52,310 nucleotides of DNA from an archaeon (lineage in GTDB: Archaea; Nanobdellota; Nanobdellia; SCGC-AAA011-G17; GW2011-AR20): positions 1 to 52,310 of the forward strand of contig NZCT01000030.1 in NCBI GenBank assembly GCA_002688355.1, in the 5' to 3' direction. Position 1 is the first letter of the stretch; each line of letters opens with the position of its first letter. A program made the translations under genes and the position numbers. Shown one piece after another: positions 4,572-49,054 of this stretch. The notes below the pieces were generated by a model, which was not told the DNA's origin, did no database searches, and was given only the letters and a program-made list of their open reading frames with translations.

Positions 4572-5186
4572 ATGAATAATTCAAGTCTATTAAAAGAATA
4601 TCAAGAAAGAAAACACATTATACAATCTAGGTTAAAAGATTTTAGCTCTATTAAAGAAGAAGAATATTTTTATGAATTATGTTTTTGTTTATTAACACCA
4701 CAAACAAGTGCAAAACTAGCAGATGAAACAATTCAAAAATTAAAGAAAAACAACTTTCAAAACAAAGATTTTAATCCAGTAAAATATCTAAATAAAATCA
4801 GGTTTCTAAATAACAAATCAAAATACTTACTAGAACTAAAAAGGAATTACAAAATGATCTACAAAAATATTCTAAACCTAAAAGATAACCCAATAGAACT
4901 AAGAGAATATCTAATTAAAAATATAAAAGGAATAAACTACAAAGAATCTGCTCACTTTATTAGAAATATTGGTTTATCAAATAATAAAATAACAATCTTA
5001 GATAGACATATTCTAAAAAATTTAAACTCTTTAAATATAATAAAAGAAATACCAAAAACATTATCAAAAAATAAATATTTAAAAATAGAATCTAAATTCT
5101 TAAGCTTCTCAAAGCAAATTAATATTACTGTAGATGAATTAGATTTATTATTTTGGTCTCAAGAAACAGGTGAAGTTTTCAAATAA
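4572..5186 (+). CDS. ogg: N-glycosylase/DNA lyase (8-oxoguanine DNA glycosylase, archaeal Ogg type)
   Basis: ELCFCLLTPQ, IKGINYKESAHFIRNIG, ILDRHIL, ELDLLFW. Confidence 0.9.
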   Translation: MNNSSLLKEYQERKHIIQSRLKDFSSIKEEEYFYELCFCLLTPQTSAKLADETIQKLKKNNFQNKDFNPVKYLNKIRFLNNKSKYLLELKRNYKMIYKNILNLKDNPIELREYLIKNIKGINYKESAHFIRNIGLSNNKITILDRHILKNLNSLNIIKEIPKTLSKNKYLKIESKFLSFSKQINITVDELDLLFWSQETGEVFK

Positions 5187-35427: not shown

Positions 35428-35649
35428 TTATCTTCTTCTTCTAGCTGAGGATGCTCTTGATGCTCGTCTTCTTGTTGTAGAAGCTCTTGCACTTGAAGCT
35501 CTTCTTCTAGTAGTAGAAGCTCTAGCACTTGATGCTCTTCTTCTAGTAGTAGAAGCTCTAGCACTTGATGCTCTTCTTCTTGTAGAAGATGCTCTGGATC
35601 TAGAAGATCTTGCTCTTGAAGCGGATGCCGCTCTTCTTCTTGCTGCCAT
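35428..35649 (-). CDS. 73-aa protamine-like Arg/Ser/Ala-rich protein
   Basis: ATG 35649 with GAGGTGA 8 nt upstream, TATA-like motif near 35710-35717, oligo-T after stop; only M/A/R/S/T residues, 27 Arg. Confidence 0.8.
   Translation of the reverse strand: MAARRRAASASRARSSRSRASSTRRRASSARASTTRRRASSARASTTRRRASSARASTTRRRASRASSARRRR
35468..35595 (-). repeat. 36-nt coding tandem repeat (RRRASSARASTT), about 3.5 copies
   Basis: Plus-strand unit gcacttga(a/t)gctcttcttctagtagtagaagctcta at 35489 and 35525, with partial copies either side. Confidence 0.9.
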
Positions 35650-35727
35650 TCTTTTTTTCACCTCTTTATGTTTTTAATAAATATATAACGATATAAATGC
35701 AGAACCAGTATTTAAACCTATTGTTTT

Positions 35728-38409: not shown

Positions 38410-39315
38410 ATGAACTCTGTAATTATTAAAAATCTAACAAAGAAATATAAGAACTTATTAGCAGTAGATAATATTTCCTTCAATATTAAAAAAGGAGAAA
38501 TCTTTGGTTTACTAGGACCAAATGGAGCAGGAAAAACAACTATAATTAACTGCATAACACAATTATCAACAATTACAAATGGAACAATAAAAGTAAATTC
38601 TTACGATACAAAAGAAAATTATCTAGAAGCTAGAAAAGAACTAGGATTATCACCTCAAGAATTAAAATTCGATCATTATTTTCCAATTCAAGATATTCTA
38701 ATTTATCAAGGTGGTTATTTTGGAATACCAATTAAAGAATCAAAAGCACGAACATACAAATTACTAAAATTATTTGATCTTTTCGAAAAAAGGAAAAAAA
38801 CTCCATCACAATTATCTGGAGGAATGTTAAGAAGATTATCATTAGCAAAGTCAATGATGCATAATTCAAATATACTAATTTTAGATGAACCAACTGCAGC
38901 CTTAGACGTAGAATCAAGACATTTATTATGGGAATATATAAAAGATCTAAATAAAAAAGGAATTACAATTATTTTAACCACACATTATATAGAAGAAGCA
39001 GAAAACTTATGTGATACAATTTGTATAATTCAAAAAGGGAAAATAATAAAGTTAGAAAAGAAAGAAAAATTAATAGAAGATCTCTCAAGAAATATTATAA
39101 GAGTATTATTAAAAGATAAAACAACACTACCAGAAATAATTAAAAAATACAATTATGAATACAAAGATAATATCTTACAAGTTCATGTAAACAAAATAAA
39201 CCAAACTAAAATTCTAAACACAATATTAAAAGAACTAGATAAAAAAGTAATTAATTTCACAATAGAACAAGATAATTTAGAGAGAATTTTCAGGAGATTA
39301 ATAAATGAACACTAA
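38410..39315 (+). CDS. ABC-2 type transporter ATP-binding protein
   Basis: GPNGAGKTT, LSGGM, ILDEPT, TTHY. Confidence 0.95.
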   Translation: MNSVIIKNLTKKYKNLLAVDNISFNIKKGEIFGLLGPNGAGKTTIINCITQLSTITNGTIKVNSYDTKENYLEARKELGLSPQELKFDHYFPIQDILIYQGGYFGIPIKESKARTYKLLKLFDLFEKRKKTPSQLSGGMLRRLSLAKSMMHNSNILILDEPTAALDVESRHLLWEYIKDLNKKGITIILTTHYIEEAENLCDTICIIQKGKIIKLEKKEKLIEDLSRNIIRVLLKDKTTLPEIIKKYNYEYKDNILQVHVNKINQTKILNTILKELDKKVINFTIEQDNLERIFRRLINEH

Positions 39316-41853: not shown

Positions 41854-43322
<1,469 letters not shown>

Positions 43323-43383
43323 TTAATTACTTTAAATTATTATTGCTTTATACAAACTCAAATCTTTTCGTGTTAATCAATAT

Positions 43384-43497
43384 GGGCCTGTAGCTCAGTT
43401 CGGTAGAGCATTCGCTTTGCATTAAAAACAAAACAGCGAGGGGCCTCGGGTTCAAAACATTTTTCCTAAGGAAATTGTGAATTTCCCGACAGGTCCA
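43384..43497 (+). tRNA. tRNA-Ala(UGC) with two introns (43422-43434 at 37/38; 43457-43483 at 59/60)
   Basis: GGGCCTG/CAGGTCC acceptor, TTCGC/GCGAG anticodon stem, TCGGG/CCCGA T stem; both inserts give BHB/BHL folds. Confidence 0.92.
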
Positions 43498-43513
43498 TTC
43501 ATAATTAAAAAAA

Positions 43514-44023
43514 ATGGATGATATAAATAAAAATAAGGGTAATCAAGCTGAAAAGAAATTTAAAGAATGGCTAGATCTTCATAACATCCCTTACTTATAC
43601 ATTCAACAAGATACAAAAACATTTTCTCCTTCTCTAAATAAATATTTTGGATCAAAAAGACCAGATTTCATGATTCTTATTCCAAATCTGGGATTTATTT
43701 TTATCGATATAAAATACAGAAAAATAAATGAAACATACAAAAGTTTTCCACTAGATAGCATAGAAACTAGAAAATATTCTGTTCTACAAAGAAAATTCAA
43801 CTTACAAATATGGTATGTTCTATCAAATAACACCTATGGATACAAAACCTGGTTCTGGATTAACGTATCAAAAGTTTTAGAAGAGGGAAGAAATCCAAAA
43901 TTTACATCTGGAAAATCAAGCATGGATTTCTTTGCAATACCAATAACAGATTTTATTCAAATAGCAACAAATGATTCACTAGATAGATTATTTTCCAAAA
44001 TTTTTGTAGAAGAATTAAAATAA
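43514..44023 (+). CDS. PD-(D/E)XK nuclease-like protein in the 16S-23S spacer
   Basis: KGNQAEKKF (alpha1 E), RPDF, FIDIKYR. Confidence 0.8.
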   Translation: MDDINKNKGNQAEKKFKEWLDLHNIPYLYIQQDTKTFSPSLNKYFGSKRPDFMILIPNLGFIFIDIKYRKINETYKSFPLDSIETRKYSVLQRKFNLQIWYVLSNNTYGYKTWFWINVSKVLEEGRNPKFTSGKSSMDFFAIPITDFIQIATNDSLDRLFSKIFVEELK

Positions 44024-44033
44024 AATCCATAAT

Positions 44034-44050
44034 CAAAAACTTTATAAATA
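44034..44050 (+). promoter_or_regulatory. candidate separate BRE/TATA promoter for 23S rRNA
   Basis: CAAAAACTTTATAAATA matches the promoter motif seen elsewhere in the window. Confidence 0.6.
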
Positions 44051-44200
44051 AGTTACATCGTAAAATTTTAAAGTTAAAGGCAAAATGGTAAATTAATTAT
44101 TCACAAATCATTCTTATTTTTTATAAAGTGCAGCTCAAAAGATTTTTTGGGTGAAGGGTTATCATAAATTTTTGGTAACCATGCATAGGTGGATAAAGTA

Positions 44201-47059
<2,859 letters not shown>

Positions 47060-47141
47060 TACTTTATCCATCTATGTACTTTATTTTTTTTTCTAATATT
47101 TTAACAAAATTTATAAAGTAAAATCATGTAGTGTAAACTAT

Positions 47142-47215
47142 GGTGGCAATGGCGTAACCTGGTAGCGTAGAGGCTTGTGGAGCCTTTGGTCCGAGTTCAA
47201 ATCTCGGTTGCCACA
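47142..47215 (+). tRNA. tRNA-His(GUG), genomic G at -1, discriminator A73
   Basis: GTGGCAA/TTGCCAC, GAGGC-TT-GTG-GA-GCCTT, CCGAG-TTCAAAT-CTCGG; TATA at 47105-47118. Confidence 0.93.
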
Positions 47216-47227
47216 TTTTTTTAGAAA

Positions 47228-47938
47228 TTATAAAATCTTAAAGTAAACTCTTCTATTATTTTTACCTTTATTTTCAATCTTTAACAACTCAATTTTCCCA
47301 ATCTCTTTTAAACTTTTAACATGACACCCACCATCAGCTTGTTTATCAAAATCTTCAATCTCAACAATTCTTATTTCATCTACCTCATGTTTAAAATTCA
47401 TTGCTAATTTAAATAGTTCTTCATCTTTTTTAGCTTCCTCTTTACTTAAATAATAAACTTTAACTTTCAAATCTTTTTCAATTATCTCATTAGCTTTATC
47501 AATATATTTCTGTATTTTCTCTTTACTAAAATTCTCTAAGTCCAAGTCAATTCTTCCTTTTTCTAAATTTAATTGATTACCAGTTATCAAACATTTTAAC
47601 TCCTTAGAAAACAACCCACTCAAAACATGAGCAGCTGTATGATATCTCATTAGCAAATATCTATTATCCCACTCTATTTTTCCTGTTATATTATCTCCAA
47701 CTTTCAACCCCTCTTCAGAAACTTCATGACTTATTTTATTCTCTTTCTTTATTACATATACAACCTCAAATTCTCTATCATCTAAAAAAATTTTTCCAAC
47801 ATCATTTAACACCCCACCTCCAATTGGAAAAAAAGCAGTTCTATCTAGCACTATAAATTTATCATTAACCTCTTTAACAACAGCAGTAAATTCTCTTAAA
47901 TAAGAATCATCAAAATACAACGCACTTTTTCTATCCAT
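47228..47938 (-). CDS. alaX: alanyl-tRNA editing protein AlaX-M
   Basis: LYFDDSY, TAFFPIGGG, MRYHTAAHVL, DGGCHV. Confidence 0.93.
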   Translation of the reverse strand: MDRKSALYFDDSYLREFTAVVKEVNDKFIVLDRTAFFPIGGGVLNDVGKIFLDDREFEVVYVIKKENKISHEVSEEGLKVGDNITGKIEWDNRYLLMRYHTAAHVLSGLFSKELKCLITGNQLNLEKGRIDLDLENFSKEKIQKYIDKANEIIEKDLKVKVYYLSKEEAKKDEELFKLAMNFKHEVDEIRIVEIEDFDKQADGGCHVKSLKEIGKIELLKIENKGKNNRRVYFKIL

Positions 47939-48662
47939 TCTCCTTAGTTAATATTTTAATTTCCCCAAAAGGTGAATCTTGTTCTAAAGAAATCTTTTCC
48001 TGATTATCCAAATATAGTAAAGGTAAAAATGTAACAATTTTATCTTCTTTCTTCTCTCCTAAAATTAATTTCTTAAACGTTAACGTAGCGTTCTTATTTG
48101 CTTTAAAAAATCCTAAAATCCTAGCATAAACATCTTTTATTAATTGTGAAATATCAATAGTTTTTATAGGTACTGGAATCTTAGATTCATCTAGTTCCAC
48201 ATCACGTAAAACTCGTCTTTGATTAACCTCTAAAGCCTTTTGCAAAGCACTCATTAAATCATTAATATTAACTCTTCTCTTCCTAGCTAACGGCGTTTTT
48301 ATAGTTAATTTAGGTAATTCATCTTCTCTTAATGGTACTGGTGCGTCCTTAAAATTAGGGTCTTCAAGTTCCTCAAATTCATCTTCATTTTTATACAATT
48401 GACTATCAAAATTAAAGATTTCTTCATTAACTAATTTATCTGATTTTATCCTTAATAGTATAGAACTAGCCAATAACATCTTCCCAGAAACAAAGAAATT
48501 AGCCTCTTTTAGCTTCTGGATAGTCTCTAAATACCTTTTAGTTAAAACAGAAATATCAATATCCCAAGGGTTCATCTGCTCACTTTTAATTAAATCATAT
48601 ATCATATCTTGCCAAGTAATCTCATCTTTCTTGATAAGCATATTAAATAGTTGATCTTGCAT
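47931..48662 (-). CDS. scpA: segregation and condensation protein A (kleisin)
   Basis: MNPWDIDIS, SGKMLLASSILLRIKS, TFLPLLYL, Q..PFGEI. Confidence 0.9.
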   Translation of the reverse strand: MQDQLFNMLIKKDEITWQDMIYDLIKSEQMNPWDIDISVLTKRYLETIQKLKEANFFVSGKMLLASSILLRIKSDKLVNEEIFNFDSQLYKNEDEFEELEDPNFKDAPVPLREDELPKLTIKTPLARKRRVNINDLMSALQKALEVNQRRVLRDVELDESKIPVPIKTIDISQLIKDVYARILGFFKANKNATLTFKKLILGEKKEDKIVTFLPLLYLDNQEKISLEQDSPFGEIKILTKENG

Positions 48663-48742
48663 TCTTTTTCTAGAAGTTTGTATATTTATAAATTTACTCT
48701 ATAGAATATTAGAAGATTGTAACCACTTTAAAGTTTAAACAA

Positions 48743-48758
48743 CCGAAAGCTTTATATA
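48743..48758 (+). promoter_or_regulatory. BRE/TATA promoter with no downstream plus-strand ORF
   Basis: CCGAAAGCTTTATATA, close to the canonical archaeal BRE-TATA. Confidence 0.6.
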
Positions 48759-48780
48759 GTTTTTCATATCCATATATTAT

Positions 48781-48838
48781 ATCACCTCTTTTTTCCCATG
48801 AACTTGTTTTTCTTCGGAGAAGCAGGTTCTTGGGTTTT
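48781..48838 (+). ncRNA. candidate small RNA: anti-SD-like 5' arm plus 18-bp C(UUCG)G hairpin and U tract
   Basis: Stem 48795-48812/48817-48834 with 3 G-U pairs only on the plus strand; promoter about 30 nt upstream. Confidence 0.55.
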
Positions 48839-48868: not shown

Positions 48869-49054
48869 CTACTTTTTACTCTTATATTCAACATAATGGC
48901 ACTTTCCACAGTATAATCTATCTTTATGATCTGCTAAAAAAGAATCAGTACTACACTTGGGGCACATTTTTCCTCTAGTAATAGTCTTACCATCTATCTT
49001 ATATTTTAACCATTTCTTACTTGCTATTTTATTTTTAACTTCTTTCTTTGGCAT
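48869..49054 (-). CDS. rps27ae: 30S ribosomal protein eS31 (S27ae)
   Basis: CPKCSTDSFLADHKDRLYCGKC. Confidence 0.93.
   Translation of the reverse strand: MPKKEVKNKIASKKWLKYKIDGKTITRGKMCPKCSTDSFLADHKDRLYCGKCHYVEYKSKK

Follow-up and report, generated by a model that had tools for sequence, protein, structure and literature searches.

Small RNAs (sRNAs) that block the ribosome-binding site (RBS) of an mRNA are known from archaea. In Methanosarcina mazei, sRNA41, sRNA154 and sRNA162 act by masking RBSs (PMC5867862): they are intergenic and independently transcribed, and they repress translation when their unpaired pyrimidine-rich stretches pair with RBSs, including ones within polycistronic mRNAs. 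In bacteria, sRNAs with C/U-rich seeds (the RsaE/RoxS type and the 6C sRNA; PMC6486639) reach many RBSs with a seed that resembles the anti-Shine-Dalgarno (anti-SD) sequence, and they have a stable, terminator-like hairpin and a U tail. Here we describe a candidate sRNA gene in a 52-kb stretch of DNA from a low-GC DPANN archaeon (contig NZCT01000030.1; 52,310 nucleotides, analysed whole and called the window; coordinates are window positions). It is very probably a stand-alone gene for a structured RNA of ~58 nt, one of a previously undescribed family in DPANN genomes and head-tailed viruses.

The M. mazei sRNAs are genus-restricted, carry their anti-RBS motifs in loops, and have no similarity to this RNA in sequence or structure. 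In contrast, the RNA described here has an exact 8-nt copy of the 16S rRNA tail at its predicted extreme 5' end, invariant over order-level diversity; its hosts rarely use Shine-Dalgarno (SD) sequences, and viruses carry the gene. The bacterial sRNAs belong to another domain with a different transcription machinery, their seeds are CCC motifs in loops rather than complete copies of the anti-SD tail, and there is no homology (no Rfam match). Trans-acting sRNAs with an anti-SD-like seed are a known class; this family itself is new, and there is a real chance that it is something more unusual.

The element lies in a 206-bp spacer. Both flanking genes are on the minus strand and were confirmed by Pfam: scpA is divergent from the element, and rps27ae is convergent with it. 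Its parts are as follows.

48743-48749, plus strand: transcription factor B recognition element (BRE) CCGAAAG, read directly
48751-48758, plus strand: TATA box TTTATATA, read directly
48781-48794, plus strand: predicted 5' single-stranded arm AUCACCUCUUUUUU, its first 8 nt equal to the 16S 3' tail, unpaired in the minimum free energy (MFE) fold
48781-48788, plus strand: octamer ATCACCTC, identical to 16S 43313-43320
48789-48794, plus strand: T6 run, read directly
48795-48834, plus strand: 40-nt hairpin with a CCCA/UGGG clamp, a U-U mismatch and a 13-bp stem with three G-U pairs
48812-48817, plus strand: C(UUCG)G loop at the hairpin apex
48835-48838, plus strand: T4/U4 tail, the presumed 3' end or termination signal

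Most of these features had been read correctly in the initial annotation. The BRE and TATA box are canonical, and no plus-strand open reading frame (ORF) of at least 60 amino acids (aa) follows them; the sole ORF, of 32 aa, begins within the stem. The identity of the octamer to the 16S tail, the U6 run, the C(UUCG)G loop and the U tract were all as described. The octamer had been placed about 30 nt downstream of the promoter; the actual distance is 23 nt from the last TATA base to the first arm base. The stem, given as 18 bp, consists of 17 pairs plus one U-U mismatch (4+13). The three G-U pairs are present, as had been claimed (U48804-G48825, U48807-G48822 and U48810-G48819), and the plus strand folds far better: the MFE is -23.5 kcal/mol for the plus strand (z = -5.5; 0/200 shuffles folded equally well) and -12.0 kcal/mol for the minus strand (z = -2.1). 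The promoter, the fold and the covariation described below support the proposal of a plus-strand RNA of ~60 nt with its own promoter.

The RNA most likely starts at or beside A48781, the A of AUCACCUC, and would begin pppAUCACCUC. Archaeal transcription starts ~23 nt past the TATA box, on a purine that follows a pyrimidine. The motif CGAAAG-N-TTTAWAWA lies 22-25 nt upstream of the arm's TCACCTC in 52/118 members of the family, the window included, and also in virus copies, and the bases at -2 and -1 ahead of TCACCTC are T (87%) and A (98%), respectively. The predicted start follows from this TATA spacing and from the T/A preference. At the 3' ends of family members, GGGUUU is followed by A/T-rich sequence. 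The hairpin varies in sequence yet is always compensated, and it keeps a CCC/GGG clamp and a loop that is UUCG or GNRA. We are highly confident that the RNA is ~58 nt long and made up of a free 5' arm, AUCACCUCUUUUU(U), a very stable hairpin and a short U tail.

The octamer by itself is not significant. ATCACCTC occurs three times in the window (0.82 expected), and 4/100 shuffles reach three copies. The third exact copy, at 38649-38656 on the plus strand, is within the coding region of a gene (38410-39315) with neither promoter nor hairpin adjoining, and we judged it a chance occurrence. The promoter motif GAAANNTTTAWAWA is enriched in the window, with 6 occurrences (1.08 expected; 0/100 shuffles reach 6). 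Judging from the sequences compared, the non-randomness of the element comes from the conservation of the whole arrangement in relatives. A covariance model built from the family (R1) found one copy of the element in the window (50.1 bits, E = 2e-12).

We found the family at at least ~155 loci in metagenome-assembled genomes (MAGs) of Woesearchaeota, Pacearchaeota and Nanoarchaeota, plus contigs of head-tailed viruses. The window's ScpA shares 54-59% identity with proteins from MAGs of Woesearchaeota and Nanoarchaeia, and regions upstream of scpA in relatives were retrieved without any constraint on the element. Four of the nine relatives whose retrieved region covers the scpA upstream sequence hold the same arrangement: CGAAAG-N-TTTAWAWA, ~22 nt, (A/G)TCACCTCTTTTT, CCC, a hairpin of differing sequence, and GGGTTT. 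Three others (L022, L143 and L145) have the element not at scpA but on another contig. A pattern scan of one genome per species of the Genome Taxonomy Database (GTDB), with the arm and the CCC/GGG clamp specified, gave at least 120 matches. Among the matches listed, all but ~3 were genuine, with MAG labels Woesearchaeota, Pacearchaeota, Nanoarchaeota or Nanoarchaeia.

Some carriers have other labels. Many are labelled 'uncultured Methanosarcinales' (L011, L012, L017, L023, L025, L028, L034, L037 and others), and single carriers are labelled Aminicenantes, Bacteroidetes or Thermococci (L060 and L129 are among the oddly labelled loci). These MAGs have the element subtype and the neighbouring genes in common with Woesearchaeota MAGs, and the odd labels are probably due to mis-assignment or bin contamination.

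The arm is invariant even where it was not imposed. Since the first scan had imposed the arm, a second scan fixed the promoter and the CCCA...GGGTTT clamp only and left the arm free. It gave 47 new loci, of which 6 were chance matches in bacteria and 41 were archaeal. The arm, AUCACCUCUUUU, was found again: 39/41 archaeal loci read ATCACCTCTTTT(T)(T) exactly where expected. The arm was also present in 4/4 elements found by scpA synteny alone. ScpA among those species is 41-59% identical, and an arm that is invariant across species whose ScpA proteins are about half identical is as constrained as the rRNA tail that it copies. Variation in the arm was seen solely in the second units of tandem arrays (ACACCUCUUUU and UCACUGUUUUUUU). 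The conservation of the anti-SD arm in relatives is a decisive point in favor of the initial annotation, which could not have seen the size of the family or its carriage by viruses.

The family matches nothing described before. At gathering scores, no Rfam 15 model matched the element of the window or those of 12 related loci, and at E<=10 the window region had chance-level matches only (at most 18 bits; gathering scores are 43-115). By sequence string and by topic, we found no earlier description of the RNA family in Rfam 15 or in the searchable literature. The family consensus has no boxes of a C/D-box or H/ACA guide, and snoRNA (small nucleolar RNA) models scored under chance thresholds.

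We found that the hairpin covaries strongly in relatives. In a MAFFT alignment of 97 members, 8/11 consensus hairpin pairs had compensatory double changes. The three invariant pairs are the CCC/GGG clamp, which was fixed by the search pattern; all of the remaining inner pairs (8/8) show double changes. When 96 members were aligned to R1, 96.5% of cells formed a standard pair (68.7% when shuffled), there were 328 double-change cells (91 when shuffled), and the covariation score was 0.81 (0.24 when shuffled); these pair counts come from a model-fitted alignment. In controls with the 3' partners shifted by 1-3 columns, pairing stayed at or below 60% of cells. The MAFFT result and these slid controls speak for a real covariation signal.

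Four results settle the strand. On the plus strand, the terminal loop is UUCG in 45/95 members and GNRA in 11/95 (56/95 together). In contrast, the loop complements expected from a minus-strand reading were found in 0 (UUCG) and 2 (GNRA) of the 95. The plus strand also has the more stable fold in 82/95 members, and G-U pairs, mismatched if the other strand is read, make up ~15% of paired cells.

Pacearchaeota-type members (L027, L031, L036, L048, L049, L090, L117, L124 and L126) have a longer hairpin (~55-60 nt) whose tip varies and is enclosed by a conserved inner module, AGAAGAGYCAGGAC…GACACCGRCUYYUCU. This module may be an extra, protein-binding internal loop.

The gene is usually set apart from its neighbours. 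The upstream gene is divergent in 97/120 cases and the downstream gene is convergent in 74/112, and those ORFs that follow on the same strand are unrelated singletons. This setting is that of an independent sRNA gene, by prediction neither a leader nor a terminator. Two settings recur. In 27 loci, the RNA gene is flanked by scpA, which is divergent there, and by rps27ae-rps24e-rpoE, and rps24e is convergent downstream of the element in 23 loci. In 37 loci, the neighbour is a convergent gene for a 585-aa Lon-like protein. Other recurring neighbours are dnaG and a RIO kinase gene (the latter in just 6 loci), and the neighbours track lineage synteny. In the window, the neighbouring features are as follows.

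47931-48662, minus strand: scpA (Pfam SMC_ScpA, 1.6e-16), divergent neighbour
48693..48685, minus strand: scpA TATA box TTTATAAAT, ~22 nt from the scpA ATG
48869-49054, minus strand: rps27ae (Pfam Ribosomal_S27, 1.6e-14), convergent neighbour
48735..48773, minus strand: 12-codon mini-ORF MDMKNYIKLSVV, opposite the promoter and outside the element, judged spurious

The scpA mRNA is probably leaderless, to judge from a TATA box only ~22 nt before the ATG. rps27ae is the last gene of the row rpoE-spt4-rps24e-(149 aa)-rps27ae, in which S24e was also identified (Pfam, 2.7e-20).

At most loci the unit stands alone. A second subtype carries a ~10-nt leader (AAACAUCUA), and a third has longer leaders and arrays of 2-3 non-identical tandem units. 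Higher-GC members (L030, L043, L051, L065, L066, L076, L085, L101, L107 and L110) have one promoter, a 60-100-nt leader and 2-3 tandem units. L066 and L110 have extra hairpins inserted between the arm and the terminal hairpin, and one unit has a different arm (ACAGGCUCUUUUG). Because of these inserted hairpins and the different arm in arrays, the terminal hairpin may be a reusable module.

We found the same pattern in viruses. It matches 13 IMG/VR contigs, with R1 scores of 27-60 bits, and several of the contigs encode terminase large subunit, portal and major head proteins, as identified with PHROGs. These head-tailed carriers presumably infect the archaea that carry the RNA. The elements located are as follows.

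L181, 4978-5040, minus strand: element
L183, 5467-5534, minus strand: element
L182, 11917-11974, minus strand: element
L187, 1408-1463, plus strand: element
L186/L188, L184 and L180: further elements

The L181 and L183 elements are on the gene strand, in the interval from terminase-large to portal, and a TATA box of their own precedes each by 23-27 nt. One stem pair distinguishes L183 from the related contig L188 by a compensatory U-A to C-G change, which argues that the stem structure is under selection in viruses too. Viral-contig ORFs have an SD of at least 6 nt about four times as often as ORFs in host loci (24% versus 5-7%). Five related contigs (L181, L183, L186, L188 and L191) have a second, exact 16S-tail motif, UCACCUCC (CCCUCC in L181), ~100 nt downstream of the element, in the long SD-less leader before the portal gene. 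This motif, (U)UCACCUCCCUGUGUUU...GGG, was absent from all host loci retrieved. Its positions are:

L183, 5353-5373, minus strand: second motif
L186, 11171-11191, minus strand: second motif
L188, 101-121, minus strand: second motif
L181, 4933-4945, minus strand: second motif
L191, 272-291, minus strand: second motif

The RNA probably acts on the start of translation. We tentatively favor the notion, drawn from complementarity, that it acts in trans, with its free 5' arm directed at GAGGUGA-type SDs. The arm would pair with GAGGUGA(U)-type SDs in competition with the 30S subunit and would lower translation of the minority of mRNAs that need a strong SD: a handful of host genes, internal cistrons and numerous virus genes. 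An Sm-like (SmAP/Lsm) protein could dock on the conserved U5-6 run, or the run could serve as a spacer, and the hairpin would shield the RNA from decay and help to end transcription. The arm is perfectly complementary to GAGGUGAU. The strongest SDs in the window, AAAGAGGUGA at 35657-35668 and 41-52, are exactly complementary to the arm (duplex ~-15 kcal/mol); they precede a 77-aa ORF (35428-35661) and a gene cut by the left edge of the window, and the window has 2-3 such SDs. Invariance, lack of pairing in the fold, and complementarity to the strongest SDs all point to the arm as the functional part of the RNA. A duplex scan of the whole window, which bears on a possible role as an rRNA or tRNA guide, found no outstanding site in 16S, 23S or tRNAs; the best sites were SDs, at ~-15 kcal/mol, and we rejected such a guide role. 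Masking of a small SD-led regulon is the simplest mechanism, and what the data offer in its support is the complementarity.

The 77-aa ORF, on the minus strand, consists nearly entirely of Arg/Ser/Ala/Thr repeats (…TRRRASSARAST… several times) and has no Pfam match. The strongest SD in the window (AAAGAGGTGA) is 8 nt before its ATG. It could encode a protamine-like basic protein or be a repeat artefact.

Several observations weigh against masking in trans and weaken the case for a broad role of that kind. SDs are rare in the window, where 45/69 genes have no SD of at least 4 nt and 4/69 have one of at least 6 nt; in related loci only 5-7% of ORFs have an SD of at least 6 nt. The window holds no excess of sites complementary to the arm (11 versus 11.9 expected). 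In 1.31 Mb of related loci, 169/257 GAGGTGA sites are the RNA gene itself; in the same 1.31 Mb, 21 other sites precede ORFs of at least 50 aa, and these are all singletons with no recurrent target family. Pairing of the U run with A-rich SD flanks was seen at the window's own sites only, and A runs matching the conserved U run were not seen upstream of real SDs in relatives or viruses, so that SD pairing fails to explain the conservation of the U run. An internal U5-6 run, ~10 nt after the start, is itself an archaeal oligo-T termination signal. SD-rich viruses with the RNA in a structural operon are awkward for a pure repressor of SD-led translation: an SD-dependent virus could encode an SD repressor in its late operon (for dosing, or to exclude a second infection), but masking does not predict it. 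Finally, the start site, the 3' end and the trans action of the RNA are all predictions from sequence.

Because SD sites are rare, no conserved target was found and SD-rich viruses carry the RNA, we kept a different explanation alive, which we regard as possible but doubtful. The arm would mimic the single-stranded 3' end of 16S or pre-16S rRNA and titrate a factor that binds, masks or cuts that tail, with no pairing to mRNA. Candidate factors are the KH protein Pno1/aDim2p, the D-site endonuclease Nob1, or an anti-SD-targeting nuclease, and their titration would free or protect tails and favor SD-led translation. The likeness of the RNA to the rRNA exceeds the anti-SD: the window's pre-16S reads GGAUCACCUCCUUUAAUUAC and the RNA UAUCACCUCUUUUUUCCC, with 12/13 positions equal from AUCACC onward, and the entire 13-mer, including the U run, is invariant in the family, though SD pairing needs no U run. 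Jia et al. reportedly found in 2010 that Pno1/aDim2p binds GGAUCACCUCC; the GG of GGAUCA is missing from the RNA, which speaks against a decoy. A promoter-driven copy of its own in the late operon of an SD-rich virus suits a helper of SD-led translation better than a repressor, and related virus contigs add the second 16S-tail motif. A decoy would thus explain the pre-16S likeness, the U run and the viral copies. Archaeal Nob1 also cleaves short single-stranded D-site RNAs taken from their context, and does so even when a hairpin loop presents them (PMC3326319). However, no protein partner was found linked to the RNA gene, whose neighbours follow lineage synteny (scpA, ribosomal proteins, the Lon-like gene), and RNA decoys of this type are unknown in archaea. 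Slightly less probable again is the fuller version, that the RNA is a copy of the mRNA-recognition tail of the ribosome, kept by the cell and captured by viruses, that decoys a factor masking, trimming or processing the 16S 3' end (Pno1/aDim2p, Nob1 or a defence nuclease aimed at the anti-SD) and so sets the share of ribosomes using SDs.

Sequestering of the anti-SD in SD-poor lineages has a precedent in the Bacteroidia, where bS21, bS18 and bS6 hold the 16S tail (PMC7797042, PMC13000453). There, an SD is lacking in most genes and the 16S anti-SD persists all the same; SD/anti-SD pairing for the few SD genes is under the control of a dedicated device. The parallel is conceptual only, as ribosomal proteins hold the tail in Bacteroidia and a separate, tail-copying RNA would serve here.

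It is unlikely that the element acts in cis, as a strong promoter and 5' leader whose hairpin stabilizes, attenuates or insulates a downstream transcript, with the free RNA as a by-product. The viral element is sense-oriented between terminase and portal and is followed by a long SD-less leader, a same-strand ORF follows in 38/112 host cases (14 within 64 nt), and the 3' U3-4 would be a weak terminator, all of which fits such a cassette. But two thirds of host loci, the window included, have a convergent gene next, which leaves nothing to lead into; the same-strand ORFs that do follow are unrelated to each other; and a stabilizing hairpin needs no invariant 13-nt arm identical to the 16S tail. 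Least probable by far is that the minus strand is the functional one, with GAGGTGAT serving a small ORF as a true SD and the hairpin terminating the rps27ae operon. The opposite strand indeed reads GAGGTGAT-N7-ATG into a 12-codon ORF, as the initial annotation had noted, and the hairpin is ~35 nt past the rps27ae stop codon. Against this, the minus strand folds weakly, the loops and G-U pairs fit the plus strand only, A6 rather than a U run follows the hairpin on the rps27ae strand, and the element keeps its form beside unrelated neighbours and in viruses. The further suggestion, that the RNA acts in cis against the mini-ORF, did not hold: on the opposite strand, a start codon 3-12 nt past GAGGTGA is lacking in 91/178 members, and the others have ORFs of unrelated sequence with a median of 11 codons. 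We rejected it, and the minus-strand reading with it, because the mini-ORF is not conserved in presence, length or sequence. The probability left over by masking, decoy and cis cassette goes to other or unknown mechanisms.

We rejected several further candidates. An intrinsic terminator of the rps27ae operon or of scpA would be on the wrong strand; the element has its own promoter and, in the window, no co-directional upstream gene, and it keeps its form elsewhere. It is not the leader of one specific downstream gene, as the same-strand downstream ORFs are unrelated singletons. A viral att-site copy is unlikely, given the terminase-portal position, the promoter and the compensatory changes between related viruses. 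A piece of split or fragmented rRNA was rejected as well, because the 16S and 23S models match end to end.

In architecture, the RNA resembles the U7 small nuclear RNA (snRNA). U7 is ~60 nt long and has a 5' antisense arm with CUCUUU, a U-rich Sm-type site and a 3' hairpin whose loop is often UUCG. The layout of the predicted archaeal RNA is the same, but this is an analogy of architecture only. There was no Rfam match to U7 at E<=10, the target would differ, and the conserved U5-6 run between arm and hairpin is flanked by C, not by the purines of an Sm-type site. The tandem members also recall ToxI-type (type III) antitoxin arrays: short structured units sometimes stand in tandem behind one promoter (L030, L043, L076, L085 and others), and there are viral look-alikes. 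The two differ in that our family has no adjacent toxin gene, has housekeeping neighbours, is mostly single-unit, and has non-identical repeats.

This would be the first conserved regulatory RNA family in DPANN archaea, which are uncultured, genome-reduced and nearly unexplored for RNA. It raises the question of what governs SD/anti-SD access where the anti-SD is copied letter for letter and SDs are hardly used. Since SD-rich head-tailed viruses carry the same RNA, host and virus may contest the control of translation initiation. If the RNA is a decoy, it would let hosts whose translation is mostly SD-free switch between SD-dependent and SD-independent initiation, and SD-dependent viruses would encode it so that their late genes are reliably translated. 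As a marker for the clade and its viruses, the covariance model can be used as it stands, and it could help to assign hosts to viral contigs.

Two other features of these loci are of note. The rRNA operon of the window (41854-47215, plus strand) has the order 16S-23S-tRNA-His; its 16S-23S spacer (867 nt) holds no tRNA, and there is no 5S gene anywhere in the 52 kb. A conserved non-coding block of ~150 nt, at ~4690-4900 on the plus strand of L065 and matching regions of L076, L110 and L071, lies between the small-RNA array and archaeal dnaG and has its own TTTAAATA box (…AUGGGUCCUU…GCCCGACACGAGAGUACUCAAUGGAGCU…GCUUGGGAGUUAGUGUUUCGGGC…). Neither an ORF nor, at E<=1, an Rfam match is present in the block, which may be another unannotated RNA or the leader of dnaG.

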